The notes beneath the pieces were generated by a model. It saw only the letters and a list, made by a program, of their open reading frames with translations, did no database searches and was not told the DNA's origin. Shown here one piece after another: positions 24,304-64,000 of a DNA stretch of 64,000 bases (positions within the stretch are counted from its first letter, which is position 1; each line of letters opens with the position of its first letter). The translations under genes were made by a program, and so were the position numbers. This stretch comes from Escherichia coli (GTDB taxonomy: Bacteria > Pseudomonadota > Gammaproteobacteria > Enterobacterales > Enterobacteriaceae): NCBI RefSeq assembly GCF_016026235.1, contig NZ_CP065613.1; one strand, written 5' to 3'.

Positions 24304-24333
24304 AAATAGTCCTTTTTATTGTTACAGAGGGAT

Positions 24334-24786
24334 TTATTCGTCTGAATCTAAAACATACTTTGTGAAGTATTCCTTTAACTGGGTTTCAGGAAGAGTGATT
24401 AGTGTCTCGACGATATCGGGCTGTTGTAACTTGCCAAATAAACAGCGTAAAAGTTTCAATTGCTGCTGCGGATTTTCCACAATCAACGCAATAACCAACG
24501 ATACCTCCACGTCGTTATCATCATCCGCTTGCTGAAAATGAACTTTATTTGTTGGCCTTAACAGATAAATGGCTGACGACTTAGCATGAATCGCCTCACA
24601 ATGCGGTATTGCAATGGCGTGCTGCTCAAGCATTATCCCGGTAGGGAATTCTGCTTCTCTGGCAATTAATGCCTGTGGCCAGGTATCATGAACCACACCT
24701 TTGGCGAGCATCTCATTACCGATATGGGTTAAAACTTCGCTACGATCGACAAAAGAAATTCCGCTACGAACAAACAGGTTAGTCAT
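24334..24786 (-). CDS. gatA: PTS galactitol-specific EIIA GatA (150 aa)
   Basis: ORF track; operon context. Confidence 0.88.
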   Translation of the reverse strand: MTNLFVRSGISFVDRSEVLTHIGNEMLAKGVVHDTWPQALIAREAEFPTGIMLEQHAIAIPHCEAIHAKSSAIYLLRPTNKVHFQQADDDNDVEVSLVIALIVENPQQQLKLLRCLFGKLQQPDIVETLITLPETQLKEYFTKYVLDSDE

Positions 24787-24795
24787 ATACCGTCC

Positions 24796-26995
<2,200 letters not shown>

Positions 26996-27099
26996 TTAAA
27001 TATCGAGATAACGATCACAAAAACGACAATATGAAAATTGTTCGAGGAGTGAAAGGCAAAAAAACGGCCTCCCGATAGGGAAGCCGTAGCAAAGTGCGC

Positions 27100-27245
27100 G
27101 TGTTTTTATGCCGGATGCGGTGTAAACATACGTGGCAGTGCTATGTAGGCATGATAAGACGCTTCCGCGTCGCATCAGGCATAGGTTGCCGGATGCAGTG
27201 TAAACGCCTTATCCGTCCTACGGGGTGGTGTTGTTCGTATAAGGC
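27100..27245 (+). repeat. BIME / cluster of REP elements
   Basis: Several alternating-orientation GCCGGATGCGG...TTATCCGGCCTAC-type palindromic units between gatY and fbaB. Confidence 0.7.
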
Positions 27246-27248
27246 GTA

Positions 27249-46030: not shown

Positions 46031-48262
46031 AATTCCTAAAGTTGTTTTCTTACGATTTTGTCTCTCTCTAACCCGCATAAATACTGGTAGCATCTGCATT
46101 CAACTGGATAAAATTACAGGGATGCAGAATGAGACACTTTATCTATCAGGACGAAAAATCACATAAATTCTGGGCGGTTGAGCAGCAGGGAAACGAGCTG
46201 CATATCAACTGGGGCAAAGTCGGCACTAACGGGCAAAGCCAGATAAAAAGTTTTGCGGATGCTGCGGCAGCGGCAAAAGCGGAGCTTAAGCTGATCGCAG
46301 AGAAAACGAAAAAAGGCTATGTGGAAAATGCTTCAGCAAACGTGCATATCCCCCCCATTACCAAAGCCACTCCTGAAGTTGAAACTTCCCCTGAGAGTAA
46401 AAACCAACGCCCCTGGCTGGCTGATGATGCGGTCATTCGGCTAACTGACGATATTAATCGATTTGCTTTTCCTCATCGCTCTCGCCCCAGAGAGATCAAT
46501 TATCTGCACAAAGATGGTCAAATATGGCAGCTCATCGCGAATAACACCAGGGCATATGATCCCGCCAACAATTACCGTTCTTATCCAGAAAACTGGCAGC
46601 AGGCTTTTGCTGAGTTACAAATGCGAGTTCAGGGTAATCAACAGACAGGGAGTGCACAATCTGATGCAGCATTGCTCTGGAGTTTCTGGAACTCTTACTC
46701 TGCAGATGAACTGGTCGATGACTTAGTCATTCGCTGTGGTCTGGAAAGTGCCGTTGAAATTGCCCTTCTCGCTCTTCAACTTAGATATAAACCAGTAAAA
46801 GGCGCAGTAACCACCATCATTCCACCTAATCACAAAGCAGAATCGCTGCCGAGTTGGCATCAACGTCTATGTCATCATCTTTCACTCACTTCAGAAGATG
46901 AGTGGCAACGCTGTGTAGATAAAGTACTCGCCGCCATTCCGACGCTATCCCCAGCACGGCAACCTTTTGCGGCGTTACTGCTCCCCGAATGCCCGGATAT
47001 TGCCAATGCTATGGCGCTACGTTATGCAGACCAAAACGTTCCGGCGATGACCTGGTTAAGTATGATGGTAAGCGATGATGTTGCCCTGGCCATCCAGGAA
47101 AAATATGGTTTCCCACCGCTATATAATGATTTCCGCAAATATCTGGCTACGTTGCTGGCAAATAATGGAATGCGTGGTGTAAGCCGGATTCTTCTCAAGC
47201 TACCTGTCGACTATCCCGTAAAATACACGGACCTTTTCACTCACATACACGCCAATGCTGAAGATCTTGTCAAATGGCTATGGAAAACGAATCACCCGGA
47301 TGCGATTCAAATTCTGATCCTCGGTGTAAATGGCAAGAAAAAGCACCTGGAATACTTAAGCAAAGCCTGCCCAAAACATCCCGCTGCGGCTATTGCCGCT
47401 TATGCTACTTTGCTGGCAATACATGAAAATAATGAGTGGCGTAAAGCGCTTGTCAAACTGATTACCGCCACGCCAGAGTTAGTATGCGAGGTCATTCCCT
47501 GGGTTAATGCTAAGGCGGCAGGCATCTTATCTGAATGTCGTCCGCTGCCAGTAGCTGAAGAATGTGAATATGCCACTGTGGATATGTTGCCGGAGCTGCT
47601 TGTCGCTCCACCGTGGGTAATAAATAAGAAAAAGAATGTCATACCCGTATTTGATTTACCGGTACTTCCCATTCCTGCCGTCACGGATATCACACCAGGA
47701 ATTACAGAGTTAATCAGTCATACTGACATATCCAGATTCAGTGAAATTGCGCAATATCAGGCATCACAGCAAACCTTATTTACCGATCTGCCACTAATTG
47801 AAAAAGAAAGCTGGGAGACATCTTTCATTCCTTTTACACCAGAACAACAAATTCTTTGGCAATTAGGTTTTAATGAATGGCTGCATTGCGAAAATGACTT
47901 ACATGAAAAAAAATATATACCGCAAAGCGCTGTTGATGCCTTGTTGCGCTTTGATTTTTCAGCACTAAAAGCTGAGTTTGCGAAATATCACAACAATGCC
48001 AACAAAAGCTGGAATCTATCTGCGCTTTGTTACTTACCGGGACAACAGGCGATCTCATTTCTCAACCAAATAATCATTGAGGAGCGATATTCAGGTGAGA
48101 AAGAGATTCTGGCGGTTTTTGGTAGTACGGCCATTCCTGCGTTTATGACCTGCTTGCAACGAGATCATCAACGCCTGTGGATATTCACCCTTTTTATTGG
48201 AGCCAGTGAACTAGCCTTACCAATGGCGCAGCGGTTACAGAAAAAAATAGCTTACAAGGATG

Positions 48263-49688
48263 TAATGCCAGTCAGTTAAGCAACTGACTGGCTCTTTTTC
48301 GGGGCTGTGGGGTATTTCCAGGGCCTCTCCTTTACCACTCTCGGGAAGGCCCTTCCCCTTCTCGTCGGTAATTTCACAAGTTGTCCCATACTTGCAAGAT
48401 CGCGCATCAGCTCCGGTATACGTCCCGGTGAAGCGCCCTGCAATGTCATCAGCATTCTCATCACCATTCCGCATGATTCTGAGAAACTCAGTTGATTCGG
48501 CCAGTAACCTTTCAGATGTTCCGCCATTTTAATCATCTGATATCTCACCAGATTATAAGCCAGTAAGACACCCTACAGCTCTTGCTCCACAAGCTCCGGC
48601 TTTTTACTTCTCAGCGTCAGCCTGCTCAGTTGCATCGTCTGTTTTATCTCCCTGTATCCCAGTTCGATTTCCCAGCGATGACTGTACAGATCCGCCATTT
48701 CTCCTCCGGGGAAGCGCATGGCGTCCGTCATCGACGTCAGCAGATGGCAGACTTTTCCTTTGCGCGTCACGGTCAGCAGGCGGGCTGTCACTTCATTTCC
48801 CAGTCCCGGCCACTTTTTTCGTGCCTGCGGGCTGGTTTTCAGCTTCACCAGATGATCGCCTTTACCCAGTTTTCTGAGCTCTTCATATTGCGCTCCCTTT
48901 CTGAGAGGTATCATCCAGTGGCGGTGTTCTCCCGCCAGGCTCCAGGCATTTAACAGTCCCAGTGAGTAATAACCTTTATCCATTAACGTCAGAGTGTTAT
49001 CGCCGGTTTGTTCTATAAGTTGCTCAGCAAGCTCATTTTCGCTGTTCTTCATCGTGCCGAAGGCTGCAGCCGTCAGCAGATGGCTGGTCAGTTCCATCTG
49101 GCAGACCATTTTGACCTGCGGGTAGAGCGCCGGGTTCCCGGCATGTGTCTGGCGGGGGAAGGCTGCATCGTTCTCTGGTGTATCCGGTGTGCGCCAGAAC
49201 ACACCATCGATGGCCAGCAGGGTCAGGCCGCACCAGTGCGGATGCGGCGTGGCGTTATGCCAGAGCTGCGCTGTTTTCGTGAACACGCGGCGGACAGCCT
49301 CACTTCCCAGGCGCTGGCGGGCCTGAATAACGGCACTGGGGGCAACGAAGGGGCGATTGCCCGGCAGCATGATGTCCAGGCGATTCACAATCTGGTGAAG
49401 AGGTTCTTTACGCTCAAGCGCCATGCCAACAATACACCAGACCATCATTTCGAGGGGAAGACGGCGCTTGCGTAGCGTTACAGTACCTGATTCGGCAAGG
49501 CAACGAGAGATGAGTTCGGGGTCGAGGTAATCCCCCAGAGAAGTCAGTGGGTTACGCAGAGAATCGTAACGGGATACCAGATCAAGAGCCTGTCCAATGT
49601 GCATAAAAAAATCCGGAAACAAGTGAGCGTTTCCGGATTCTTACACAGCCACTGGATCGGTCAACTGATCCTTAACTGATCGGCATTA
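48263..49688 (-). mobile_element. IS4, copy 2 (1426 bp)
   Basis: Same ends as copy 1; 12-bp target site duplication CTTACAAGGATG at 48251-48262 and 49689-49700. Confidence 0.9.
48276..49604 (-). pseudogene. insG: IS4 transposase with premature amber codon
   Basis: Single C-to-T difference at 48574 relative to copy 1 (13593) changes TGG (Trp) to TAG at 48573-48575; the ORF track shows the split 349 aa + 90 aa. Confidence 0.85.
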
Positions 49689-52600
49689 CTTACAAGGATG
49701 CCGTTAATTGGCTGGCAAATAACCCGCGCCATGCCGCCGCTGGGCTACTGCCTTTGGCGCTGGGCAAACCGTGCCAAAATCGGGAATATGCCCGCCAGGC
49801 ACTCCTCCTGCTAGTGAAATTAAACCAGCGAGAAACGATTGAGGAAATCGCCCAAGGATATAATCAACCTGATGTTTTAGCTGCGCTGGCAACATTATTT
49901 GATAGCGACCCACTGGAAGAATATCCTGCAAAAATCGCCCCACTGCCCGGCTTTTATCAGTTCCCCTTATGGCGCAGACCTCGGCTTAAAAGTAACAACC
50001 TGCCTCTGCCAGATGACGCTATGCGCCACCTCGGCACAATGTTGAGCTTTCCACGCGACATTACCTCCTACGCTGGGCTGGCGATCATCAAAGAGACCTT
50101 CACCCGCGAATCACTGGCTGACTTTGGCTGGGATCTCTACACGGCATGGACAGAAGCAGGCGCACCCGCAAAAGAGAACTGGGCATTTACCTCGCTGGGG
50201 ATTCTAGGCAATGACGACACCGCGCGTAAACTAACCCCGCTCATCCGCGCCTGGCCGGGTGAATCCCAGCATAAACGCGCGGTTTACGGGCTGGATGTGT
50301 TAGCCAGTATCGGTAGCGACATTGCGCTTATGTTGCTTAATGGCATTGCGCAAAAGATTAAATTCGTTGCATTACAGGAACATGCCAGCGACAGAATCAA
50401 TATGGTCGCCGAAAATCGCGGACTGACAATGGCCGAACTGGAAGATCGCCTGGCACCGGATTTAGGGCTTGATAGCAGTGGCTCGCTGACACTGGATTTC
50501 GGCCCACGTCAATTTACCGTTGGTTTTGACGAAACTTTAAAACCTGTAGTGCGCGACGCAAACGGCAAAGTCCTGAAAGATTTGCCCAAACCAAACCAGA
50601 GCGATGAAAAAACTCAGGCAACTGACGCGGTTAATCTCTTCAAACAGTTGAAAAAAGATGTACGCGCCATAGCCAGCCAGCAGATTGATCGTCTGGAACA
50701 GGCTATGTGCCAGCGCAGACGCTGGACGGCAGAGCAGTTCCGCCTGTTTCTGGTGGAGCATCCGCTGGTACGTCACTTAACCCGACGGCTGTTATGGGGG
50801 GTTTATAACGATGAAAACGCCCTTATCACCTGTTTTCGCGTGGCAGAAGACAGCACTTACAGCGATGCGCAGGATGAGTTATTCACGCTGCCAGCAGGAA
50901 ACATCGGTATACCGCATGTGCTGGAAATCCCCCCTGAATCCGCCGCTGCATTCAGGCAAATTTACGTTGATTACGAACTGCTTCCCCCTTTCCAACAGCT
51001 CGAACGTGGTAGTTACCACCTTGCTGATAACGAACGTAATGTCCATGAATTGTCACGCTGGGACGGACGTCTCTGCCAGGCCGGACGCATTGTCGGGCTG
51101 GAACGCAGAGGCTGGCAACGTCTGGAAGAAAGCGGCAGCGTCTATGCGATGCGCAAATCTACCCCTTATGGTGCTCTCGAACTTGAAACAGAACCTTTTT
51201 CATTAATTTATGGCGAAACGGGGTATAGCGACCTGCTGCCTGTCGAAAGCGTAAAAATCACCGCCCCTTATGATCGCTATGGTAAACAATCCTCACCCAC
51301 TTTCTCCGTGCTCGACGACATCACCGCCAGCGAGCTGATTAACGACATTGAATCACTGTTTGATTAAAAGGATTTAACAATGAAAACCTATATTTATCAG
51401 GACGAAAAATCACATAAATTCTGGGCGGTGGAGCAGCAGAGAAACGAGCTGCATATCAACTGGGGCAAAGTCGGCACTAACGGGCAAAGTCAGGTAAAAA
51501 GCTTTGCTGATGCTGCGGCGGCAGAAAAAGCGGAACTGAAGCTGATTGCGGAGAAGGTGAAGAAGGGGTATGTGGAGCAAGTAGACGCTAACGCTCACTC
51601 ACATGATGCCTCAGCAAAGAAAGTCCTAGTCACAGAGGAAAAAGCCTCAATAAATCACCAGGCAGCAACTAATGGTTTACCCTGGCTGGCAGACAACGAT
51701 CCCATTATTCTTCCCCCGAATATTGCCCGCCATGCCCTCAGCCACCGCCTTTGGCCGGGAGAGCCAGTAAAAAAACCAACCAAACCCGAGAAACAAAATT
51801 TAATTTCCCGATTGGCAAATCGTACTTATCATTATTATAAAAATCTGACTTTCGATTACAGCTCATGCTCTGATGAATGGGCTGATGCGATTAGCCAGGC
51901 AATCAGCTTAATTAAGGCCCAAAAGACTGAGATACCCGCGCGTACTATGGCGGTACTTACTTTTCTGGAAATATGTTTTTGTCAGGGCTGGAATGATGAA
52001 ACCTCATCCGAGTTGCTGGATGAAATTGTAAGCACCTTCGGTATCGAATACGCAACTGAAACTGTCATCTTCTGGTGGCAAATTGATTTCGATTTTGACT
52101 ATAAAGATGAACATTTGACTTTCTTTATTAATTATGCAGATAGCAGCAAGGACAGTTATAGAAGGAATAACGACAAATTTAGTTTACGTCTGCGTAAACA
52201 TTTATCACTAGCAGAAGAAGAAGTATGGCAAAATTGCATTGCAAAATTACTCGTTGCGTTACCAGATATATCACTCTATCGCCAACCGTTAATTGCCATT
52301 TTAATGCCAGAAATACCCGAAGTGGCCCATGAGATCGTACATCGTTTACACCAGGTCGCAGATGTTCCACAACTTGAAATGTTGAAACTGGTAGCGACAG
52401 ATCCATTCACGCTCGAAATACTGGAGAACTATCAATACATTGATGTATTTAACACCTATGGTGCCAGTTGGTCAGCTACGGTATTACGGGAACAAGGTAT
52501 AGCGGCACTGGCTCGCCTGGCTTCCTATGCTGAAGAAGATAATTGCGGTGACGTACTGAAATGTATTAATCATCCGTTGGCCATTACGGCACTCATCGAA

Positions 52601-52951
52601 GCCGCCGATACTAATAAACGCTGTTATGAACGACTAATAAAAAGTGCCGAAAATTTTCCTTCTGCCACGATAGCGGCATTAGCCGAAGCATTGGTAAAAA
52701 AAGATGATAAACGCAAACATACGTTGCTGGTTTCATTACTTAATGCAAATCCTTTATTGGTCGAAAAATTAGTCATCGGATTATCGTCGCAAGCGGCAAA
52801 TTTATTGCAACAATGTCAGCAATTGCTGAATAGTCGCAATGAAGATTTTGCAAACTCAGAAATTCTACCAATGGTACTAGTCTCGCCGCCCTGGGAAACT
52901 CAAAATAAAAATAACGACAACAGTCCTGTGGGTAAATACCCGGCGAAAATC

Positions 52952-54246
52952 CCTGAGGGATCCCCAGAAAATTTAGTAAACCATTATCATATTGGTATAC
53001 CGTTGCTGTAGAACTTTCAGCCCTGCGTCAAGTGACAGTGTGTTTAGTATGAGTGGAGAATGTCGAATCACATTCTCCGCCAGTTTTAATAACGAGATGA
53101 CTCGCCTGTGCTTCACTGTATTTGCCTGATATTTATGATGTATCCCTTTGTTTTCCAGGCTGAAACCGCTTAACCACATAATGATACTGGCTAATGTTGC
53201 GATCAGACTCAATACCGTGACCCGCCCGGATGAATGACTGGCACCAAACCGTAGTCCAAATCCCCAGCGAGGATTTTTTTCATCCCTGAAATTTTGCTCA
53301 ATTTGCATTCTACGGCTGTATAATTTCATTACCTGTTTTGGCGAGAACTCAGTACTGTTTGTGAAAATAAACCATGGTGATTTCCCGGCAGTACGAGCTT
53401 TAGCCGTCACCGATGGTCTGGTTGCTCTTTCCTTCGAGCGTTTAAATCTACGACCTTTAGGCTTACTTTTATAAAGATAAAAATGCCCTTCATGTTGTGC
53501 ATTTTTATCTCGACCCAGCAGGCCTTCACCTAAATAAATTGCTGTCGTTGATGCTTTTGTGCCTGAGTCCGACACCTTTTCCCAGCCATTACCAACATTG
53601 TAATAATGATTGCCCAGTACCCGGCAAATATAGGTCCAGCCACGGGAGCGGAGCTGTTGGAACCATCGCCCCTGAAAACCGGCATCTGTAATAACAATGA
53701 CATCAGTCCCGGGGGAAAAGCACTCAGCAAGCGATTCCAGAAAACGCTCATGTACATCTGCATTCGCTGTCTGTGATGATGGAACGACACAACTCATCAA
53801 CGGTAAAGAACGCCCGTCACATGCCAGGCTTGCCCGCAAAAGCTGAAAACGAGAGGCATGATAAGCACTCCAGTCAATGAGTATCACAACACGAGACATT
53901 CCCCGCGTAATCTTTTGGGTAATTCGCTGAAAAATGGTGGAAACCTCATTTTGCAAATGTCGATTCCCCAACAGTCGATCCACCCGCTTTATTTTGTTTT
54001 TAACTGATGCCGTACCGGTTAAATGACGCCCGATACTGGTAAGTGTGAGGGAAGCGCCATTTATTACAGCATTAGTTGCGTCAATCAGTGATTTTTGACG
54101 GTAAAGATGCAAAGGGGCCAGTATGTTGTTAAGGAAATTTTGGCATAATGAACGTGCAGGCATAGTGGTGATCTCCTTGAAATTGTTAGCACAATCAATT
54201 AGATCACATCTCACTATGCCTGTCTTGTTTTCTGGGGATTCCTCAG
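52952..54246 (-). mobile_element. IS10-like IS4-family insertion sequence, copy 3 (1295 bp, inverted)
   Basis: Same TIRs; 9-bp target site duplication GCGAAAATC at 52943-52951 and 54247-54255. Confidence 0.85.
52973..54214 (-). CDS. IS4-family (IS10-like) DDE transposase
   Basis: Same protein as copies 1 and 2; ORF-track entry 52973-54301 is extended N-terminally past the IS end, so it is trimmed to the position equivalent to the copy 1 start. Confidence 0.8.
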   Translation of the reverse strand: MRCDLIDCANNFKEITTMPARSLCQNFLNNILAPLHLYRQKSLIDATNAVINGASLTLTSIGRHLTGTASVKNKIKRVDRLLGNRHLQNEVSTIFQRITQKITRGMSRVVILIDWSAYHASRFQLLRASLACDGRSLPLMSCVVPSSQTANADVHERFLESLAECFSPGTDVIVITDAGFQGRWFQQLRSRGWTYICRVLGNHYYNVGNGWEKVSDSGTKASTTAIYLGEGLLGRDKNAQHEGHFYLYKSKPKGRRFKRSKERATRPSVTAKARTAGKSPWFIFTNSTEFSPKQVMKLYSRRMQIEQNFRDEKNPRWGFGLRFGASHSSGRVTVLSLIATLASIIMWLSGFSLENKGIHHKYQANTVKHRRVISLLKLAENVIRHSPLILNTLSLDAGLKVLQQRYTNMIMVY

Positions 54247-55725
54247 GCGAAAATCCCCCCTTTACCGTTGTTTTATCAACCTCCATTATGGACTCGCCCA
54301 AAACTCAAAAATAGCAGCAAGGTACTGCCAGATAACGCCCTCCTCCACCTCGGTGAAATGCTCCGCTTCCCTCAGGAAGAGGCCCTGTATCCGGGATTAT
54401 TGCAGGTGAAAGATGCCTGTACCGCCGACTCACTGGCTGAATTTGCCTGGGATCTGTTTACCGCCTGGCTGACTGCGGGCGCACCGTCGAAAGAGAGTTG
54501 GGCGTTCACTGCGTTAGGCGTTCTTGGTAACGATGACACCGCCCGCAAACTGACGCCATTAATACGCGCCTGGCCTGGTGAATCCCAGCATAAACGCGCC
54601 ACCGTTGGGTTGGATATTCTCGCCGCTATCGGTAGTGATATCGCCCTGATGCAGCTTAACGGTATTGCCCAGAAACTGAAATTCAAAGCATTACAGGAGC
54701 GGGCAAAAGAAAAAATTGCCGACATTGCCGAAAGCCGCGAACTCACGGTGGCAGAGCTTGAAGATCGGTTAGCACCGGATCTCGGTCTGGATGATAACGG
54801 TTCGTTGCTGCTGGATTTCGGCTCACGCCAGTTCACCGTCAGCTTTGATGAAACCTTAAAACCGTTTGTGCGTGATGTTTCTGGCAGCCGTCTGAAAGAC
54901 CTGCCCAAACCAAACAAAAGCGATGATGAATCACAGGCGAACGATGCTGTTAACCGCTACAAACTGCTGAAAAAAGATGCGCGTACCGTCGCCGCCCAGC
55001 AGGTAGCAAGGCTGGAATCCGCCATGTGCCTGCGTCGCCGCTGGTCACCGGAAAACTTTCAGCTCTTCCTGGTTGAGCATCCGCTAGTTCGCCACTTAAC
55101 CCGCCGTCTGATTTGGGGCGTTTATAGCGCCGAAAACCAGCTACTGGCCTGTTTCCGGGTAGCGGAAGATAACAGCTACAGCACCGCTGACGATGATCTT
55201 TTCACCCTGCCGGAAGGCGATATCTCTGTTGGTATTCCTCACGTTCTGGAAATATCACCGACGGATGCCGCCGCATTTGGGCAGCTTTTTGCCGACTACG
55301 AACTGCTACCGCCGTTCCGCCAACTCGACCGTAACAGTTACGCCCTGACAGAAACCGAGCGCAATGCCAGCGAACTGACCCGCTGGGCAGGCAGAAAATG
55401 CCCGAGCGGTCGGGTAATGGGGCTGGCGAATAAAGGCTGGATAAAGGGCGAACCACAGGATGGAGGCTGGATCGGCTGGATGATCAAACCTCTGGGCCGC
55501 TGGTCGTTAATCATGGAAATCGATGAAGGCTTTGCGGTAGGCATGTCGCCAGCCGAACTGAGTGCCGAGCAACTCTTAAGCAAGCTGTGGCTATGGGAAG
55601 GCAAAGCGGAAAGCTATGGCTGGGGGAGTAATTCAACACAGGAAGCGCAGCTCTCCGTACTCGATGCCATCACCGCCAGCGAGCTAATTAACGATATTGA
55701 AGCCCTGTTTGAATAAGGAAAGAGC

Positions 55726-58700
55726 ATGGACAAGGAATTACCGTGGCTGGCTGATAACGCCCAACTGGAACTGAAATATAAAAAGGGTAAAACACCACTC
55801 AGCCATCGCAATTGGCCGGGCGAACCAGTGCCTGTTATCACTGAAAGCATCATTCAGACACTGGGTGATGAATTGCTACAAAAAGCTGAGAAGAAAAAAA
55901 ACATTGTCTGGCGTTATGAAAATTTTTTACTGGAGTGGCAGTCCGCCATCACGCAGGCCATCAACTTGATCGGCGAACACAAACCCTCAATCCCAGCCCG
56001 GACAATGGCGGCGCTAGCCTGTATCGCGCAAAATGACAGCCAACAGTTGCTCGACGAAATCGTCCAACAAGAGGGGCTGGAATATGCGACGGATGTAGTG
56101 ATGGCGCGTCAGTGCATTGCGCGGCGTTATGAGAGTGATTCACTGGTCGTCACTTTGCAGTATCAGGACGAGGACTATGGCTACGGTTATGGCTCCGCGA
56201 CCTATAACGATTTCGATCTCCGTTTGCGTAAGCATCTGTCGCTGGCAGAGGAAAGTTGCTGGCAGCGTTGTGCCGATAAACTCATTGCCGCACTGCCAGG
56301 AATACCCAAAATTCGCCGTCCTTTTATTGCGCTGATCCTCCCGGAAAAGCCTGAAATAGCCAATGAACTCGCCAGTCTTGAAAGCTCCCGGTCAAGTCTC
56401 CATTCAAAGGAGTGGTTAAAGGTCGTTGCTACTGATAATACGGCGGTAAAAAAACTCGAACGATACTGGGGCCTGGACGTATTTAGCGATCGCGAAGCCA
56501 GCTACATGTCACAAAAAAACCACTTCGGCTACGCGGCCTGCGCCGCCCTTTTGCGCGAACAAGGACTGGCAGCCATTCCGCGCCTCGCGATGTATGCCCA
56601 TAAAGAAGATTGCGGCAGTCTGTTGGTACAAATTAACCATCCGCAGGTCATCCACACCTTGCTACTGGTGGCTGATAAAAACAAACCCAGCCTGCAACGT
56701 GTGGCTAAATACAGTAAAAACTTCCCCCACGCGACGCTCGCGGCACTGGCAGAACTGCTGGCGTTAAAAGAACCACCAGCCCGCCCTGGTTATCCAATCA
56801 TCGAAGACAAAAAGCTGCCTGCCCAGCAAAAAGCACGCGATGAATACTGGCGTACGCTGTTACAAACGCTGATGGCATCGCAGCCACAACTGGCAGAAGA
56901 GGTGATGCAGTGGTTAAGTACTCAAGCCCGGGCAGTACTGAATAGTTATTTATTGGCACCGCCCAAACCGGTTATTGATGGCACCGATAACAGCAATCTG
57001 CCTGAAATCCTCGTTTCACCACCGTGGCGTAGTAAGAAAAAAATGACAGCTCCACGTCTTGATTTGGCACCGCTCGAATTAACCCCGCAAGTTTACTGGC
57101 AACCAGGCGAACAAGAGAGGCTTGCCTCCACTGAGTCTGCCCGTTATTTCAGCACGGAATCTCTTGCGGAACGCATGGAACAAAAAAGTGGGCGAGTTGT
57201 ATTACAGGAACTGGGTTTTGGGGATGATGTATGGCTGTTTCTGAATTATATACTCCCCGGAAAACTGGATGCTGCACGCAATTCACTCATTGTTCAGTGG
57301 CATTACTACCAGGGGCGGGTTGAAGAGATCCTGAATGGCTGGAACTCCCCGGAAGCACAATTAGCAGAACAGGCGCTCCGCAGCGGTCACATAGAAGCGT
57401 TAATTAACATATGGGAAAATGACAACTACTCACGTTATCGTCCGGAAAAGAGTGTCTGGAACCTGTATTTATTGGCACAGTTGCCGCGTGAGATGGCTTT
57501 GACCTTCTGGCTGCGTATCAATGAGAAAAAACATCTGTTCGCGGGTGAGGACTATTTTCTTAGTATCCTCGGGTTGGATGCGCTACCAGGTCTGATGTTG
57601 GCTTTTTCACATCGTACAAAAGAAACATTTCCGTTAATTTTAAATTTTGGCGCAACAGAACTGGCCCTGCCCGTTGCCCGCGTCTGGCGACGTTTCGCGG
57701 TGCAGCGTGATCTGGCTCGCCAGTGGATTTTACATTGGCCGGAACATACGGCTACTGCACTTATCCCTCTTGTCTTCACCAAATCCAGCGATAATAGCGA
57801 AGCTGCATTACTTGCCCTGCGTTTACTTTACGAACATGGGCATGGCGAATTGCTACAAACTGTAGCCAATCGTTGGCAGCGTAAAGATGTATGGCCTGCC
57901 CTGGAACAATTACTGAAACAGGGTCCAATGGACATTTACCCGGCACGCATTCCAAAAGCCCCTGATTTCTGGCATCCGGCAATGTGGTCCAGGCCTCGAC
58001 TTATCACTAATAATCAGCCTGTTACCGATGACGCTCTGGAAATTATCGGCGAAATGCTGCGCTTTACCCAGGGGGGACGTTTTTATAGCGGGCTGGAACA
58101 ACTGAAAACGTTTTGCCAGCCACAAACGCTGGCCGCTTTTGCCTGGGATCTCTTCACTGCGTGGCAACAAGCTGGTGCCCCCGCAAAAGACAACTGGGCA
58201 TTTCTGGCGTTAAGTCTCTTTGGTGACGAAAGCACGGCTCGGGATCTGACGACACAGATCCTCGCCTGGCCACAAGAAGGCAAATCTGCCCGTGCTGTCA
58301 TTGGTCTGAATATACTTACCTTGATGAATAATGATATGGCGCTGATACAGCTGCATCATGTATCACAACGGGCGAAATCCTCTTCATTACGTGAAAACGC
58401 AGCGGAATTTCTTCAGGTGGTCGCAGAAAATCGCGGGCTAAGCCAGGAAGAGTTAGCGGACAGATTAGTCCCAACACTGGGTCTTGATGATCCGCAGGCG
58501 TTGATTTTTGATTTTGGTCCCCGGCAGTTTACCGTTCGCTTCGATGAAAACCTCAACCCGGTTATCTTTGATCAGCAAAACGTTCGCCAGAAAAGCGTTC
58601 CCCGGTTGCGCGCCGATGACGATCAACTGAAAGCGCCCGAGGCACTGGCCCGACTAAAAGGGCTAAAAAAAGATGCTACTCAGGTGAGCAAAAACCTGCT

Positions 58701-59358
58701 CCCGCGTCTTGAAGCTGCCCTACGTACCACCCGACGCTGGTCGCTGGCAGATTTTCATTCTCTGTTTGTTAATCATCCCTTTACCCGTCTGGTTACCCAG
58801 CGATTAATATGGGGGGTTTATCCGGCAAATGAACCGCGTTGTTTACTCAACGCCTTTCGTGTGGCCGCAGAGGGGGAGTTCTGCAATGCGCAAGATGAGC
58901 CAATTGACCTGCCTGCGGACACTCTGATTGGCATTGCCCACCCGTTAGAAATGACAGCAGAAATGCGCAGTGAATTTGCACAGCTTTTTGCCGATTACGA
59001 AATTATGCCGCCTTTTCGCCAGTTGTCGCGCCGCACGGTGCTGCTCACACCTGACGAGTCAACCAGTAACAGCCTGACTCGCTGGGAAGGTAAATCCGCT
59101 ACCGTTGGGCAACTTATGGGAATGCGATACAAAGGCTGGGAGTCAGGCTATGAGGACGCATTTGTCTATGACCTGGGTGAGTACCGGCTGGTCCTTAAGT
59201 TTTCACCCGGTTTTAACCACTACAATGTTGATAGCAAAGCGCTAATGAGCTTCCGTTCTCTTCGAGTGTACCGTGACAATAAATCCGTCACTTTTGCCGA
59301 ACTTGATGTGTTTGATTTGAGTGAGGCGTTAAGCGCACCTGACGTCATTTTCCATTAA
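55726..59358 (+). CDS. yehI: YehI (DUF4132-type giant protein, 1210 aa), third paralog, lacking the N-terminal WGR segment
   Basis: ORF track; N-terminus aligns with paralog A/B residues after the WGR segment; the C-terminal half repeats the same module. Confidence 0.85.
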   Translation: MDKELPWLADNAQLELKYKKGKTPLSHRNWPGEPVPVITESIIQTLGDELLQKAEKKKNIVWRYENFLLEWQSAITQAINLIGEHKPSIPARTMAALACIAQNDSQQLLDEIVQQEGLEYATDVVMARQCIARRYESDSLVVTLQYQDEDYGYGYGSATYNDFDLRLRKHLSLAEESCWQRCADKLIAALPGIPKIRRPFIALILPEKPEIANELASLESSRSSLHSKEWLKVVATDNTAVKKLERYWGLDVFSDREASYMSQKNHFGYAACAALLREQGLAAIPRLAMYAHKEDCGSLLVQINHPQVIHTLLLVADKNKPSLQRVAKYSKNFPHATLAALAELLALKEPPARPGYPIIEDKKLPAQQKARDEYWRTLLQTLMASQPQLAEEVMQWLSTQARAVLNSYLLAPPKPVIDGTDNSNLPEILVSPPWRSKKKMTAPRLDLAPLELTPQVYWQPGEQERLASTESARYFSTESLAERMEQKSGRVVLQELGFGDDVWLFLNYILPGKLDAARNSLIVQWHYYQGRVEEILNGWNSPEAQLAEQALRSGHIEALINIWENDNYSRYRPEKSVWNLYLLAQLPREMALTFWLRINEKKHLFAGEDYFLSILGLDALPGLMLAFSHRTKETFPLILNFGATELALPVARVWRRFAVQRDLARQWILHWPEHTATALIPLVFTKSSDNSEAALLALRLLYEHGHGELLQTVANRWQRKDVWPALEQLLKQGPMDIYPARIPKAPDFWHPAMWSRPRLITNNQPVTDDALEIIGEMLRFTQGGRFYSGLEQLKTFCQPQTLAAFAWDLFTAWQQAGAPAKDNWAFLALSLFGDESTARDLTTQILAWPQEGKSARAVIGLNILTLMNNDMALIQLHHVSQRAKSSSLRENAAEFLQVVAENRGLSQEELADRLVPTLGLDDPQALIFDFGPRQFTVRFDENLNPVIFDQQNVRQKSVPRLRADDDQLKAPEALARLKGLKKDATQVSKNLLPRLEAALRTTRRWSLADFHSLFVNHPFTRLVTQRLIWGVYPANEPRCLLNAFRVAAEGEFCNAQDEPIDLPADTLIGIAHPLEMTAEMRSEFAQLFADYEIMPPFRQLSRRTVLLTPDESTSNSLTRWEGKSATVGQLMGMRYKGWESGYEDAFVYDLGEYRLVLKFSPGFNHYNVDSKALMSFRSLRVYRDNKSVTFAELDVFDLSEALSAPDVIFH

Positions 59359-59418
59359 AACACAGCGGGCAGTGATGCAACTGCCCGTTATTAACACGAC
59401 TTACCAGCGGGGAAAGCG

Positions 59419-59739
59419 ATGATCGTGCAAAAAGAGCTGGTTGCTATTTACGATTATGAGGTCCCTGTACCTGAAGATCCGTTTTCCTTCAGACTTGAGA
59501 TCCATAAATGCTCTGAATTATTTACAGGTTCCGTCTATCGACTGGAGCGATTCCGGCTACATCCAACATTTCATCAACGTGATCGAGAAGATGCTGACCC
59601 GCTAATAAATGATGCGTTGATTTATATAAGAGATGAGTGTATTGATGAGCGGAAATTACGAGGTGAATCACCTGAAACTGTAATAGCAATTTTTAATCGT
59701 GAACTACAGAATATATTCATCCAACAAATAGAAAAATAG
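59419..59739 (+). CDS. yehK: YehK (106 aa)
   Basis: ORF track; recognised. Confidence 0.8.
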   Translation: MIVQKELVAIYDYEVPVPEDPFSFRLEIHKCSELFTGSVYRLERFRLHPTFHQRDREDADPLINDALIYIRDECIDERKLRGESPETVIAIFNRELQNIFIQQIEK

Positions 59740-59792
59740 CTTTATTAAAGGGGGAAACGGTATTCCCCCTTAGATGCGTTTCAATTTGCCCG

Positions 59793-59882
59793 TTACTTCA
59801 ACAAATCAATCAACCGTAACAGAGCCACTAATAACTCCAGTACGGCAATGAGCACGATTAACTTTTGTGTCAGCGTGTCCAT
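59793..59882 (-). CDS. zorO: Type I toxin, ZorO-like (29 aa, MDTLTQKLIVLIAVLELLVALLRLIDLLK)
   Basis: Own translation; AAGGAG SD 5 nt upstream of the ATG; single predicted TM helix; matches my recollection of the Zor toxins of E. coli O157:H7. Confidence 0.7.
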   Translation of the reverse strand: MDTLTQKLIVLIAVLELLVALLRLIDLLK

Positions 59883-60063
59883 CCGCTCTCCTTATTAAGG
59901 AGCGCAACACCAGCACCTTACCCTTACACTGCCTGTCGATACTGGTTTACGTATGTTGGTACGAAACGTTGCTCTCCGGATCAGAGCACCGCCTGCGGCA
60001 CCACCCGTCCAGCAGCCAGGACTTAAAATTGGTCCGATCCGGCACAACCTCCCAACGGGCAGG

Positions 60064-60114
60064 ATTATAAATCTCATTCACTGAATTGCAATGGAGTGTG
60101 GATATGGTTATAAT
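60064..60114 (+). promoter_or_regulatory. Back-to-back promoters for zor (minus strand) and orz (plus strand) sharing a palindromic -35 hexamer, unit 1
   Basis: Plus strand: TTGCAA (60086-60091), 17 bp, TATAAT (60109-60114). Minus strand: the same TTGCAA, 16 bp, TATAAT (complement of 60064-60069). Confidence 0.6.
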
Positions 60115-60120
60115 TTATTC

Positions 60121-60203
60121 GTTGGTACGAAATGTTGCACAATCAGCAAGTTAGCGTCACTGTAGTAAATAAAAGAACCTGCCTCACCAGCAGGTTTTTT
60201 TAT
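60121..60203 (+). ncRNA. orzO: OrzO-like antitoxin sRNA (~83 nt)
   Basis: Predicted TSS 7 nt after the -10; 5' end GUUGGUACGAAAUGUUGC is complementary (one G-U) to the zor 5' UTR at 59955-59972; ends at terminator CCTGCCTCACCAGCAGG plus T7. Confidence 0.65.
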
Positions 60204-60400
60204 TTTCTGCGATCTACTTTCCAGATATTTTTTGCCAATAGCCCACCATAAATATTCACATCCCGGTCAAATGGTGCGTTGAATATAAAATCGATGAACT
60301 TATAAATAAACATGAGTTATATGATGAATTAATAAAAACAGTAATCATTTTATTAAAGGGGGAAGCGGTTTTCCCCCTTAGATGCGTTTCAATTTGCCCG

Positions 60401-60490
60401 TTACTTCAACAAATCAATCAACTGTAACAGAGCTACTAATAGCTCCAGTACAGCAATGAGCACGGTTAACTTTTGTGTCAGCGTGTCCAT
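60401..60490 (-). CDS. zorP: Type I toxin, ZorP-like (29 aa, MDTLTQKLTVLIAVLELLVALLQLIDLLK)
   Basis: Own translation of the second repeat unit; 2 aa differences from unit 1 (I9T, R23Q). Confidence 0.7.
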   Translation of the reverse strand: MDTLTQKLTVLIAVLELLVALLQLIDLLK

Positions 60491-60671
60491 CCGCTCTCCT
60501 TATTAAGGAGCGCAACACCAGCACCTTACCCTTACACTGCCTGTCGATACTGGTTTACGTATGTTGGACCACGATGTTGCACTCCGGATCAGGGCACCAC
60601 CTGCAGCACCACCCGTCCGGTAGCCAGGACTTGAAATAGGTTCGATCCGGCGCAACGTCCCAACGGTCTGG

Positions 60672-60722
60672 ATTATAAATCTCATTATCTTAATTGCAAC
60701 GGGGTCCAGCCATGGTTATAAT
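60672..60722 (+). promoter_or_regulatory. Back-to-back zor/orz promoters sharing the palindromic -35, unit 2
   Basis: TTGCAA 60694-60699; plus-strand -10 TATAAT 60717-60722; minus-strand -10 is the complement of 60672-60677. Confidence 0.6.
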
Positions 60723-60728
60723 TCGTTC

Positions 60729-60811
60729 GTTGGAACACGATGTTGCACAGGCTGTGGTGTTAGGCCTGAAAATAGTAAATAAAAGAACCTGCCTCACCAG
60801 CAGGTTTTTTT
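60729..60811 (+). ncRNA. orzP: OrzP-like antitoxin sRNA (~83 nt)
   Basis: 5' end GUUGGAACACGAUGUUGCAC pairs with the unit-2 UTR at 60563-60582 (one mismatch); terminator CCTGCCTCACCAGCAGG plus T7. Confidence 0.65.
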
Positions 60812-60922
60812 ATTTACTGTGATCTGCTTTCCAGATATTTTTCGCTCAAACAACTAATGCGCCAAACATTTATTGCGCGTAAAATATCGTTTATTTCATT
60901 AATACATTTCAGGGATGAATAT

Positions 60923-62011
60923 ATGTCACCGCAGAATAATCATCTGCAGCGTCCGCCTGCTGCTGTGTTATACGCCGATGAACTGGCAAAATTAAAACAA
61001 AATGATAACGCACCTTGCCCGCCCGGTTGGCAGTTAAGTTTGCCTGCGGCCCGTGCTTTTATCCTTGGCGATAGCGCGCAAAATATTAGCCGTAAAGTGG
61101 TGATTAGTCCCTCCGCTGTCGAACGTATGTTAGTCACTCTTGCCACCGGACGCGGTTTGATGTTGGTGGGGGAACCTGGCACCGCAAAATCTCTCCTGTC
61201 TGAATTACTGGCAACCGCTATTAGCGGCGATGCCGGGTTAACCGTCCAGGGCGGCGCATCTACTACCGAAGATCAAATCAAGTACGGCTGGAACTACGCC
61301 CTGCTTATCAATCATGGTCCATCAACGGAAGCGCTGGTCCCTGCCCCGCTTTACCAGGGAATGCGCGACGGCAAAATCGTCCGTTTTGAAGAGATAACGC
61401 GTACACCGCTGGAAGTGCAAGACTGTCTGTTAGGCATGCTTTCTGACAGGGTGATGACGGTGCCGGAACTCACTGGTGAAGCCAGTCAGCTCTATGCGCG
61501 AGAAGGCTTTAATATTATTGCCACTGCCAATACCCGCGATCGCGGCGTCAATGAAATGAGTGCTGCGCTAAAGCGTCGCTTCGATTTTGAAACTGTCTTT
61601 CCGATTATGGATTTCGCCCAGGAGCTGGAGCTTGTCGCCAGTGCTTCGGCGCGTTTGCTGGCCCATAGCGGTATTCCGCATAAAGTGCCTGACGCGGTAC
61701 TGGAGTTACTGGTCCGCACCTTCCGCGATCTGCGTGCCAACGGCGAAAAGAAAACGTCAATGGATACACTAACAGCGATTATGTCCACGGCTGAAGCCGT
61801 GAACGTGGCCCACGCCGTGGGCGTCCGCGCCTGGTTTTTAGCGAATCGCGCGGGGGAGCCTGCCGACCTGGTGGACTGTATTGCCGGAACCATCGTCAAA
61901 GATAACGAAGAAGATCGCGCTCGTCTGCGCCGTTACTTCGAACAGCGTGTCGCCACACATAAAGAAGCTCACTGGCAGGCTTATTATCAAGCCCGCCACC
62001 GCCTGCCGTGA
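60923..62011 (+). CDS. yehL: MoxR-family AAA+ ATPase YehL (362 aa)
   Basis: ORF track 60857-62011; start trimmed to MSPQNNHLQ; Walker A GEPGTAKS. Confidence 0.85.
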   Translation: MSPQNNHLQRPPAAVLYADELAKLKQNDNAPCPPGWQLSLPAARAFILGDSAQNISRKVVISPSAVERMLVTLATGRGLMLVGEPGTAKSLLSELLATAISGDAGLTVQGGASTTEDQIKYGWNYALLINHGPSTEALVPAPLYQGMRDGKIVRFEEITRTPLEVQDCLLGMLSDRVMTVPELTGEASQLYAREGFNIIATANTRDRGVNEMSAALKRRFDFETVFPIMDFAQELELVASASARLLAHSGIPHKVPDAVLELLVRTFRDLRANGEKKTSMDTLTAIMSTAEAVNVAHAVGVRAWFLANRAGEPADLVDCIAGTIVKDNEEDRARLRRYFEQRVATHKEAHWQAYYQARHRLP

Positions 62012-62021
62012 GGAAAGATGC

Positions 62022-64000
62022 ATGAGCGAGCCGTTAATTGTCGGCATCCGGCATCATAGTCCGGCCTGCGCCCGGCTGGTGAAATCGTTAATCGAAAGCC
62101 AGCGGCCACGATACGTGTTGATTGAAGGCCCGGCTGATTTTAATGACCGGGTAGACGAACTGTTTTTAGCCCACCAGCTTCCGGTAGCTATTTACAGTTA
62201 TTGCCAGTATCAGGACGGTGCAGCCCCCGGGCGTGGTGCCTGGACGCCATTTGCTGAATTTTCGCCGGAGTGGCAGGCGCTACAAGCCGCTCGTCGTATT
62301 CAGGCACAAACTTACTTCATCGATTTGCCTTGCTGGGCACAGAGTGAAGAAGAGGACGATTCGCCTGATACGCAAGAGGAAAGCCAGACCTTGCTGCTGC
62401 GTGCCACCCGCATGGATAACAGCGATAACCTGTGGGATCACTTGTTCGAAGATGAAAGCCAGCAAACTGCATTACCCTCTGCACTGGCGCACTATTTTGC
62501 CCAACTGCGGGGCGATTTCCCCGGCGATGCACTCAATCGTCAGCGCGAAGCCTTTATGGCTCGCTGGATTGCATGGGCGGTGCAGCAAAATAATGGCGAC
62601 GTGTTAGTCGTCTGCGGTGGCTGGCACGCTCCGGCACTGGCAAAAATGTGGCGCGAATGCCCGCAGGACATTAACAAGCCAGAATTGCCCTCGCTGGCAG
62701 ATGCCGTTACAGGTTGTTATCTCACACCCTACAGTGAAAAGCGCCTTGATGTGCTGGCAGGATACCTTTCAGGAATGCCTGCCCCGGTCTGGCAAAGCTG
62801 GTGCTGGCTGTGGGGCTTACAGCAGGCGGGAGAACAACTGCTAAAAACGGTTCTTACCCGTTTGCGCCAACACCACTTGCCTGCTTCGACCGCGGATATG
62901 GCTGCCGCTCATCTGCATGCGATGGCGCTGGCACAGTTGCGCGGACATAAACTACCGTTACGCACTGACTGGCTGGATGCCATAGCAGGCTCGCTGATTA
63001 AAGAAGCCCTGAACGCGCCGTTGCCGTGGAGCTATCGCGGAGTTATTCATCCCGACACCGATCCGATTCTGCTAACGTTGATAGACACATTAGCGGGTGA
63101 CGGATTCGGTAAACTTGCCCCTTCTACGCCACAACCGCCTCTGCCAAAAGATGTCACCTGCGAACTGGAACGTACCGCAATCTCTCTTCCGGCGGAGCTT
63201 ACCTTAAATCGCTTTACCCCCAATGGACTAGCGCAAAGTCAGGTGTTACATCGTCTGGCAATACTGGAGATCCCAGGGATTGTACGCCAGCAGGGAAGCA
63301 CACTGACACTTGCAGGCAACGGTGAAGAACGCTGGAAATTAACCCGCCCACTTAGCCAGCATGCGGCATTGATTGAGGCCGCCTGCTTTGGTGCAACACT
63401 CCAGGAAGCCGCACGCCATAAATTAGAAGCCGATATGCTGGACGCGGGTGGAATCGGCAGTATCACCACATGTCTTAGCCAGGCGGCGTTAGCGGGTCTG
63501 GCGTCCTTCAGTCAACAATTACTGGAACAACTCACATTATTAATCGCCCAGGAAAATCAATTTGCCGAAATGGGCCAGGCGCTGGAAGTGCTATATGCAT
63601 TATGGCGGCTGGATGAAATTAGCGGTATGCAAGGCGCGCAGATATTACAAACGACGTTATGCGCGGCTATCGATCGCACGCTCTGGCTGTGTGAATCCAA
63701 CGGCAAACCGGATGAAAAGGAGTTTCACGCTCACCTGCATAGCTGGCAGGCGCTTTGCCATATCCTGCGCGATCTACATAGCGGCGTTAATTTACCCGGC
63801 GTTTCGCTTTCTGCGGCGGTAGCCTTACTGGAGCGACGCAGTCAGGCGATTCATGCCCCGGCGCTGGATCGCGGCGCGGCTCTTGGCGCACTGATGCGTC
63901 TGGAACATCCCAACGCCAGTGCCGAAGCGGCGCTGGCGATGCTGGCACAGTTTTTCCCGGCACAATCCGGCGAAGCGCTGCACGGTTTGCTGGCATTAGC
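62022..64000 (+). CDS. yehM: YehM (partial; continues beyond the window end)
   Basis: Open frame from ATG 62022 (MSEPLIVGIRHHSPACARLV) to the end of the window; K-12 synteny after yehL. Confidence 0.7.
   Translation, partial: MSEPLIVGIRHHSPACARLVKSLIESQRPRYVLIEGPADFNDRVDELFLAHQLPVAIYSYCQYQDGAAPGRGAWTPFAEFSPEWQALQAARRIQAQTYFIDLPCWAQSEEEDDSPDTQEESQTLLLRATRMDNSDNLWDHLFEDESQQTALPSALAHYFAQLRGDFPGDALNRQREAFMARWIAWAVQQNNGDVLVVCGGWHAPALAKMWRECPQDINKPELPSLADAVTGCYLTPYSEKRLDVLAGYLSGMPAPVWQSWCWLWGLQQAGEQLLKTVLTRLRQHHLPASTADMAAAHLHAMALAQLRGHKLPLRTDWLDAIAGSLIKEALNAPLPWSYRGVIHPDTDPILLTLIDTLAGDGFGKLAPSTPQPPLPKDVTCELERTAISLPAELTLNRFTPNGLAQSQVLHRLAILEIPGIVRQQGSTLTLAGNGEERWKLTRPLSQHAALIEAACFGATLQEAARHKLEADMLDAGGIGSITTCLSQAALAGLASFSQQLLEQLTLLIAQENQFAEMGQALEVLYALWRLDEISGMQGAQILQTTLCAAIDRTLWLCESNGKPDEKEFHAHLHSWQALCHILRDLHSGVNLPGVSLSAAVALLERRSQAIHAPALDRGAALGALMRLEHPNASAEAALAMLAQFFPAQSGEALHGLLAL

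Follow-up and report, generated by a model that had tools for sequence, protein, structure and literature searches.

Do the giant DUF4132 proteins encoded in tandem downstream of metG in Escherichia coli belong with the neighboring MoxR-family ATPase gene yehL and, if so, what kind of system do they form? We addressed this question in a stretch of 64,000 nucleotides from E. coli contig NZ_CP065613.1 (assembly GCF_016026235.1), hereafter the window, in which positions are counted from the first nucleotide. A preliminary description of the window had noted three giant paralogous genes (paralog A, paralog B, and yehI), two of them interrupted by insertion sequence (IS) elements, close to a type I toxin-antitoxin (TA) locus, yehL, and yehM, and had raised the hypothesis of a conflict or defense island. 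We found that the paralog region, which occupies the 3' third of the window downstream of metG (43946–45988), is the three-paralog version of the E. coli metG-proximal molR(yehF/yehH)-yehI-yehK-yehLMPQ locus, and that the giant genes and yehL, yehM, yehP, and yehQ constitute one five-family module that travels together from Proteobacteria to Actinomycetota.

Megablast located this locus in 5,424 of 5,426 complete E. coli genomes, with strain JNQH497 as the best match (99.4% identity). In reference genomes, the gene order is metG, two or three DUF4132 genes, yehI, yehK, yehL, yehM, yehP, and yehQ; in the window, yehI, yehK, yehL, and the first 659 codons of yehM are intact. The E. coli molR-yehI-yehLMPQ locus is already annotated and the YehL subfamily already named. 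New here are the co-conservation of the giant genes with yehLMPQ, the recurrent paralog arrays, the mosaic E. coli alleles, and the TraB/TIKI-like predicted fold of YehM. A literature search covering DUF4132, DUF5682, yehLMPQ, and WGR, together with anti-phage and vWA-MoxR systems, retrieved no functional study of the yehLMPQ/DUF4132 module and no phenotype data on protection against phage; the molR promoter has been reported to be activated by BglJ-RcsB (PMC3950696).

Conservation of the five-family module

A pattern-based scan of GTDB genomes, one per species, yielded 70 loci from other species, which were extracted with 10-kb flanks and searched by tblastn with the E. coli proteins. In approximately 48 of the 70 loci, a DUF4132 gene was directly followed, on the same strand, by yehL-yehM-yehP-yehQ, and the loci without yehLMPQ downstream were mostly short contigs or extra paralog arrays. 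The linked loci span the Gamma- and Betaproteobacteria, Myxococcota, Desulfuromonadota, and Actinomycetota, including Klebsiella, Erwinia, Serratia, many Burkholderiales, Xanthomonadales, Trichlorobacter, Mycobacterium/Mycolicibacterium, and a metagenome-assembled genome of Propionibacteriaceae. Neighborhood conservation had been set beforehand as the test that could refute an association of the giant genes with yehL and yehM, and it revealed that they are co-conserved.

The degree of conservation differed between the components. YehL was 71–77% identical to the E. coli protein in most phyla, including Burkholderiales, Mycobacterium, and Propionibacteriaceae, and YehP was 61–72% identical; in a few loci (Myxococcota, Rhizobacter, and Rhodoferax) these values fell to 56–66% for YehL and 52–63% for YehP. 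Cross-phylum identities to E. coli were 42–50% for YehM and 31–38% for YehQ. Clustering of the flanking open reading frames (ORFs) across the loci returned exactly five shared families and no sixth conserved one: the one other widely shared cluster (28 loci) was judged to look like antisense shadow ORFs over yehM, and the next after it was found in 8 loci. On the plasmids Sinorhizobium pBSY16_2 (locus L086) and Agrobacterium vitis pAvCG78a (locus L087), the genes are arranged in the order AAA-DUF5682-DUF4132-VWA-SWIM with overlapping stop and start codons.

Some sources name the giant proteins "MolR family transcriptional regulator" or "predicted DNA-binding WGR domain protein", and they could accordingly be regarded as stand-alone MolR-type WGR DNA-binding regulators whose adjacency to yehLMPQ is incidental. 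The spacing in E. coli fits this explanation, with the two gene groups lying approximately 1.2 kb apart and yehK, the zor/orz TA genes, and terminators between them. However, the adjacency is kept across phyla, in Alphaproteobacteria the giant gene lies within the operon itself, WGR is missing from YehI and many other family members, and domain scans of A, B, and YehI detected no helix-turn-helix or other regulator domain; we consider the regulator explanation very improbable. As for the intervening genes, tblastn detected yehK in none of the 70 loci sampled from other species, and zor/orz was absent outside Escherichia among the same loci. Both are Escherichia-lineage insertions (Escherichia/Shigella in the case of zor/orz) into an otherwise contiguous module. 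The rho-independent terminators of the zor/orz small RNAs (sRNAs) are oriented in the yehK-to-yehL direction, which in Escherichia probably puts the paralog genes and yehLMPQ into different transcription units.

Architecture, amplification and mosaicism of the giant genes

Paralog A consists of a 5' part (46129–48262, plus strand; codons 1–711), encoding a WGR domain at amino acids (aa) 6–69 and a variable helical region, and a 3' part (49701–51367, plus strand), encoding DUF4132 at aa 1000–1183 of the restored protein. Joining the two gave 3801 nt with an uninterrupted ORF of 1266 codons. Paralog B likewise comprises a 5' part (51380–52950, plus strand; codons 1 to approximately 524) with WGR at aa 7–69 and a variable helical region, and a 3' part (54258–55716, plus strand) that encodes the conserved C-terminal module with DUF4132 at aa 734–919 of the restored protein; joining 51380–52953 to 54258–55716 restored an uninterrupted ORF of 3033 nt (1010 codons). 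The third gene, named yehI in all reference genomes (55726–59358, plus strand), is intact and encodes 1210 aa with DUF4132 at aa 954–1138 and no WGR. ORF joins, coordinates, and BLASTP thus agree with the preliminary description of three tandem, same-strand, homologous paralogs of 1266, 1010, and 1210 aa. Its domain assignment was borne out by Pfam, which placed WGR (PF05406) at the N-terminus of A (1.4e-18) and B (1.3e-17) and DUF4132 (PF13569) near the C-terminus of A (6.4e-50), B (1.8e-51), and YehI (5.3e-47), the last of which carries DUF4132 alone.

BLASTP identity between A and B was 61% over the C-terminal 490 aa or so and 35% over the N-terminal part; the corresponding values for B and YehI were 45% and 39%, and A and YehI were 31% identical end to end. 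The near-identical N-terminal segment of A and B that YehI lacks was recovered, with a length of approximately 60–66 aa (88% aa identity; 87.9% nucleotide identity over 198 nt) instead of the approximately 90 aa given before, after which identity drops to 25–40%. The family is built of an optional WGR domain, a variable helical solenoid, and a conserved C-terminal module of approximately 490 aa that contains DUF4132. An AlphaFold model of this module in B (aa 513–1010) had a pLDDT of 92.8.

Since searches with the whole of B were dominated by E. coli sequences, distant relatives were taken from a search of representatives and from the genome scan. Against 1.84 billion cluster representatives, the C-terminal module of B (approximately 490 aa) matched 5,989 clusters at the 50%-identity level (E ≤ 1e-3). 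The top 150 clusters were 44–68% identical to it, apart from two E. coli entries at 95–96%, and most spanned nearly the whole module; an alignment of 85 module sequences contained 36 invariant columns. Searching the PDB by sequence, using YehI as well as C-terminal-module and YehM profiles, returned nothing meaningful.

Tandem paralog arrays upstream of a single yehL recur independently. Three DUF4132 copies each were found in Klebsiella spallanzanii, Duganella, and Rhodoferax, and Massilia (M. mucilaginosa, M. aquatica, and M. rubra; loci L027, L030, L032, and L007) carries 5–7 paralogs of approximately 1200 aa each per 24-kb locus, upstream of one yehL. Two of these loci, L007 and L030, overlap on one contig, implying a Massilia array of roughly 40 kb, and at least seven copies occur in this genus. 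Array members were 44–75% identical over the C-terminal 490 aa versus 38–51% in the sequence before it.

Within E. coli, the giant genes showed a mosaic structure. In a sliding-window comparison, A, B, and the K-12-type paralog shared 88–95% identity over the first 60 aa. Between B and the K-12-type paralog, identity was 95–100% over the C-terminal 480 aa or so and 34–56% in the middles. Alleles of the same E. coli paralog gene also hold blocks of only 33–65% identity. The A-type middle segment was present in 1,643 E. coli genomes (83–100% nucleotide identity), the 5' half of B in 410 of the 5,426 complete genomes, and the K-12-type middle segment in 4,982 genomes, and from these differing counts it follows that two- and three-paralog versions coexist in the species. 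The variable 5' halves have a GC content of 45.6% (A) and 42.7% (B), compared with 52–54% in the conserved 3' halves and 54–56% in yehL/yehM, suggesting that the middle cassettes are of different origin.

Synonymous divergence (dS) of A between lineages was 0.35–0.42 versus 0.08–0.16 for the adjacent metG. The ratio of nonsynonymous to synonymous divergence (dN/dS) was 0.23–0.31 for A, 0.15–0.19 for yehI, and 0.02–0.06 for yehL (one near-identical pair aside). The combined range of the paralogs, 0.15–0.31, indicates past purifying selection and not neutrality.

YehLMPQ and the possible role of the module

The gene yehL (60923–62011, plus strand) is intact and encodes a MoxR-family AAA+ ATPase of 362 aa that is identical to the protein of strain ECCTRSRTH03; the start at 60857 in the ORF list is an in-frame ATG upstream of the gene start. 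Motif inspection identified a RavA-like Walker A sequence of the form GxPGxAKS (GEPGTAKS) and a Walker B-like IVRFEE, and NCBIfam returned weak matches to the GvpN and MadB AAA ATPases. yehM (DUF5682; 62022–64000, plus strand) runs off the window without a stop after 659 of its 759 codons. Both yehL and yehM lie downstream of the paralogs, as first described. In reference genomes, yehP (vWA), which overlaps the end of yehM, and yehQ (SWIM) come next and fall outside the window. YehP retains an intact MIDAS motif of the DxSxS form (DQSGS at residue 222) and matched a cobaltochelatase model weakly, below threshold, and YehQ has two CxCx(n)CxH SWIM zinc-finger motifs. A published paper on a predictor of +1 frameshift sites (PMC2790909) reportedly discusses yehP (positions 17816–18952 of locus L002) at length.

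One of the seven MoxR subfamilies has YehL as its type member (PMC3893208), and it is the sole one of the seven named after an E. coli gene without an assigned role. We group the module with the MoxR-vWA pairs (RavA-ViaA, NorQ-NorD, CbbQ-CbbO, and CoxD-CoxE) as a variant; with them it shares a MoxR AAA+ protein with a RavA-like Walker A motif and an operonic vWA protein with a MIDAS motif (PMC3893208). It differs from these pairs in adding three obligatory partners (DUF5682/YehM, SWIM/YehQ, and one to many DUF4132 giants), in encoding no client enzyme nearby, and in using a YehL subfamily that has no reported function. The vWA-MoxR ternary conflict systems (Kaur et al., eLife 2020, PMC7159879) resemble it in combining MoxR and vWA proteins with large extra proteins, in their patchy distribution across phyla, and in having a diversifying component; in contrast, that paper mentions no WGR, SWIM, YehL, DUF4132, or MolR. 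Pfam and NCBIfam scans detected no VMAP-type, caspase, TIR, trypsin, or other effector domain in the yeh proteins, and membership in the ternary systems is not supported.

The N-terminal domain of YehM was predicted by AlphaFold (pLDDT 87.2) to adopt a TraB/ChaN/HopBA1-like fold, common to TIKI/TraB/EreA-like hydrolases. Near-invariant YehM residues (G8xRHH12, E35, R175-E176xxM, and G199GxH202) match conserved residues of the E. coli TraB-family protein YbaP (GxxH41, E67, R228-N229, and GxxH252) in order and spacing when compared by eye. We treat the domain as a lead toward a metal-dependent hydrolase at the level of the predicted fold and not as a family member: compared with the TIKI/TraB/PrgY/ChaN/erythromycin-esterase-like superfamily, YehM is without profile support and has an extra helical-repeat extension of approximately 500 aa.

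Tentatively, and at somewhat less than an even chance, we propose from these sequence comparisons that the giants are variable recognition subunits, adaptors or sensors, of a YehLMPQ engine. YehL and YehP would form the usual ATP-driven MoxR-vWA remodeling pair, and YehM would supply, besides a helical scaffold, a metal-dependent hydrolase domain of the TraB/TIKI-like type. The giants would be exchangeable recognition or adaptor subunits: the conserved C-terminal module would serve as their docking part, and the solenoid, open to diversification and often accompanied by WGR, would face a ligand or target, with one engine serving several paralogs. WGR is a nucleic-acid-binding domain in poly(ADP-ribose) polymerases. 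In the genome studied here, IS4 and ISEc60 inactivated A and B recently, as IS elements were expanding throughout the genome.

As for what is recognized, mosaic alleles, paralog amplification, a distribution that is patchy yet highly conserved, recurrent loss in E. coli, and a plasmid copy adjacent to a restriction-modification (R-M) system suggest a conflict role. That copy lies on the mobilizable plasmid pl1 of Iodobacter fluviatilis (locus L085), where a type I R-M system, transposases, and an integrase adjoin the module, and one DUF4132 copy is flanked by transposases. We weakly favor the sensing of a variable, possibly foreign, molecule, that is, a conflict-type system and not housekeeping maturation, as the likeliest role. 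It would go further to see here an undescribed, widespread class of ATP-driven surveillance, in which amplified and cassette-swapped giants form a germline sensor repertoire for foreign molecules, coupled to one MoxR-vWA engine and to the YehM hydrolase as output; the sensed molecules might then be phage proteins or, via WGR, aberrant nucleic-acid ends. We regard this extension as unlikely.

Several results weigh against the sensor model and a conflict role. The division of labor between adaptors and engine is drawn from conservation patterns only. A scan of A, B, YehI, YehK, YehL, YehM, and YehP (YehQ was not scanned) against PADLOC-DB 2.0 matched no family at E ≤ 0.01, and domain scans found no recognizable toxic effector in the module. 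The family is absent from phage records and occurs in just 31 of 72,556 plasmid records; in two of the three annotated plasmid contexts (Sinorhizobium and Agrobacterium), the neighbors are ordinary and metabolic. The chromosomal site is fixed in the 5,424 of 5,426 E. coli genomes, unlike that of typical accessory defense islands, and YehL and YehP are very strongly conserved. Values of dN/dS were below 1 everywhere, giving no gene-wide positive selection among E. coli alleles, in a test that is uninformative in the swapped blocks, where dS is saturated. For YehM, hmmscan of 40 homologs returned DUF5682 only and no TraB_PrgY_gumN, and hhalign was not significant against YbaP alone or against YbaP as a 12-sequence profile (E 0.32 and 0.24), the YbaP (TraB) profile being shallow, as its homolog search gave only close relatives, all at least 65% identical. 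That a combination of TA modules, IS hits, and paralogs signals a defense island, as the preliminary description suggested, is not supported in this form: the TA genes are Escherichia-specific, the IS hits are in keeping with an IS-rich genome (probability 0.11), the locus decays repeatedly in E. coli, and there is no PADLOC match, no phage copy, and no sixth family conserved around the module.

Much of this evidence speaks for a housekeeping or stress maturation system, in which the giants would be clients or substrate-carrying subunits remodeled by YehL/YehP, for instance for cofactor or metal insertion. Characterized MoxR proteins are chaperones for specific complexes (PMC3893208). The 61–77% identity of YehL/YehP across phyla, the low dN/dS of yehL, the fixed position in essentially all E. 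coli, the lack of a recognizable toxic effector and of a PADLOC match, and the metabolic neighbors in Agrobacterium and Sinorhizobium all accord with such a system. So does a comparison with chelatases. Aerobic cobaltochelatase and Mg-chelatase are trios of a small AAA+ protein, a vWA subunit, and a giant subunit of approximately 140 kDa, and the yeh module shares with them the size classes (the CobS/CobT/CobN-like pattern) and the AAA+/vWA logic, in line with the sub-threshold cobaltochelatase match of YehP. It differs in having five components instead of three and a multi-copy, variable large subunit, and searches revealed no similarity of DUF4132 proteins to CobN/BchH in sequence or fold.

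The old name "molybdate metabolism regulator" would fit a maturation role as well, but the MolR name reportedly goes back to old genetics. Moreover, at least seven diverged tandem client paralogs would be unexpected for a dedicated pathway, as would cassette-like swapping of middles among strains of one species; no co-conserved target-enzyme candidate was found, and many E. coli lineages have lost or broken the system without obvious cost. On balance, we regard maturation, the main alternative, as rather unlikely. Together, the findings make a defined five-family system, with testable subunits and candidate catalytic residues, out of what was a vague neighborhood.

Decay of the E. coli locus and neighboring features

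Both interrupted paralogs could be restored to near-identity with intact alleles. The 5' part of A is 99.9% identical at the nucleotide level to the intact gene of ECCTRSRTH03, and the restored proteins differ from intact alleles by 4 residues (A, against ECCTRSRTH03) and 1 residue (B), which indicates that both insertions are recent. The recent and independent inactivation claimed for A and B is thereby upheld, with a different element in each.

Paralog A is split by an IS4 element of 1426 bp (48263–49688, minus strand) encoding an IS4-family transposase and flanked by a perfect 12-bp target duplication, CTTACAAGGATG, at 48251–48262 and 49689–49700; together with the 1266-codon ORF recovered on excision, this confirms a frame-restorable insertion. 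One C-to-T change cuts the transposase of this copy to 343 aa. The same insertion is present in E. coli JNQH497, where it is annotated "IS4-like element IS4 family transposase". A second IS4 in the window (13282–14707, between yegP and baeR) differs by one base and encodes the full 442-aa transposase.

The element in B (approximately 52951–54247, minus strand; 1297 bp) had been described as IS10-like. Its terminal repeats, CTGAGGGATCCCC..., are indeed IS10-like, but the element is ISEc60 of the IS4 family and not IS10 itself: RefSeq names 99.9–100% identical copies "IS4-like element ISEc60 family transposase", and the transposase matches the NCBIfam model transpos_IS4_2. A direct repeat, GGCGAAAATCCC, at 52942–52953 and 54246–54257 overlaps the ends of the element, and the true target duplication is therefore given as 9–12 bp. 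ISEc60 is multi-copy in records of enteroinvasive-type E. coli, and the window holds further copies at 492–1788 and 21340–22636. The first of these lies between tandem ibs/sib type I TA repeats upstream of mdtA, so that a second type I TA region of the window also bears an IS.

In total, the window contains five IS copies (two IS4 and three ISEc60). A and B account for 12% of the non-IS sequence, and the probability that at least two of five insertions fall within them is 0.11. Targeting of A and B by IS elements was rejected on these grounds. Of the other three insertions, at least two lie between genes, the copy at 21340–22636 being in a segment left out of that check. We read the hits as insertions that were tolerated in dispensable genes and as ordinary decay in an IS-rich genome, and they are probably polar on the downstream genes of the molR operon.

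Decay of this kind is frequent in E. coli. Among 11 independent genomes, at least one core gene is broken in six, each time by a different lesion, and all core genes are intact in five. In addition to the IS4 and ISEc60 insertions of the window, the lesions comprise the yehF/yehH pseudogene of K-12; a stop in A, a frameshift in B, and yehM Q510* in O157:H7 F7386 (locus L075); a yehL frameshift and yehM S224* in RIVM_C037791 (loci L076/L079, RIVM_C037791/C037166); a stop in yehI in PEC145; and a yehI frameshift and yehM W201* in JL05 (locus L082). The three yehM nonsense mutations are different TAG codons in three lineages and hence independent knock-outs, with no shared polymorphism, and for the same reason recoding was rejected as the cause of the recurrent "internal stop" annotations of yehM. 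In published work, ST131 subbranch L1a was found to carry a resistance transposon within the "DUF4132 region" (PMC9334617), and a deletion removed yehM, yehL, and zorO in S. sonnei lineages 2/3 (PMC12795559). The frequency of such lesions indicates that the system is dispensable in many host-associated lineages.

These observations could mean that the E. coli locus is a decaying, functionless relic whose lesions are neutral erosion and whose paralog differences are drift. A core gene broken in six of 11 lineages, the K-12 pseudogene, and the resistance transposons and deletions that strike the region point this way. The dN/dS values of 0.15–0.31 for the paralogs and 0.02–0.13 for yehL and yehM, in contrast, reflect long-term purifying selection, every core gene is intact in five of the 11 genomes, and the module is intact and conserved far beyond Escherichia. 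Because the lesions are all different and shallow, the losses are recent and repeated, not ancient, and we judge the relic explanation quite improbable. With a pseudogene as its second paralog, K-12 makes an uninformative background, and natural strains with an intact locus, which include ECCTRSRTH03, MEI1O2-23, TUM13936, and GPEC606, are the right experimental hosts.

Between yehI and yehL lie the small, Escherichia-restricted gene yehK (59419–59739, plus strand; 106 aa) and the tandem type I TA genes zorO/orzO and zorP/orzP (59760–60850; toxins on the minus strand, sRNAs on the plus strand). The type I TA locus placed downstream of yehI by the preliminary description was identified by two OrzO-P antitoxin sRNAs (Rfam RF02083) at 60128–60201 and 60736–60811 (plus strand; 88.8 and 99.9 bits against a gathering score of 60), each approximately 240 nt from a ZorO-type hydrophobic toxin ORF of 29 aa on the opposite strand (59793–59882 and 60401–60490, minus strand). 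The unit is tandem in the window and single in ECCTRSRTH03. In O157:H7, the zorO/orzO-zorP/orzP pair is likewise located between yehI and yehL, and it is absent from K-12 (PMC2887945). The window locus is a member of this zor-orz group: its position between yehI/yehK and yehL, its 29-aa toxins, its sRNAs of approximately 75 nt, and its tandem duplication all agree, and we noted no difference.

Three further features lie upstream of the paralogs. A segment of approximately 8 kb (19307–27248), which contains one ISEc60 and several other ORFs, did not align to JNQH497, which has arabinitol/ribitol (dal/rbt) genes at this place. An insert of approximately 780 bp (15122–15903) is absent from the otherwise collinear JNQH497; it carries two abutting 98-aa ORFs (15297–15593 and 15595–15891), by eye a ParD-type antitoxin and a ParE/RelE-type toxin, and an assignment to IS1 was rejected since the segment encodes this small two-gene TA-like pair. 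Finally, an integrase replaces thiM/thiD beside a thiamine pyrophosphate riboswitch in TUM13936 (locus L080, 1–2528), where it is accompanied by a GmrSD restriction gene, and in MEI1O2-23 (locus L078, 1–571); this site is a separate integration hotspot approximately 11 kb upstream of the paralog array.

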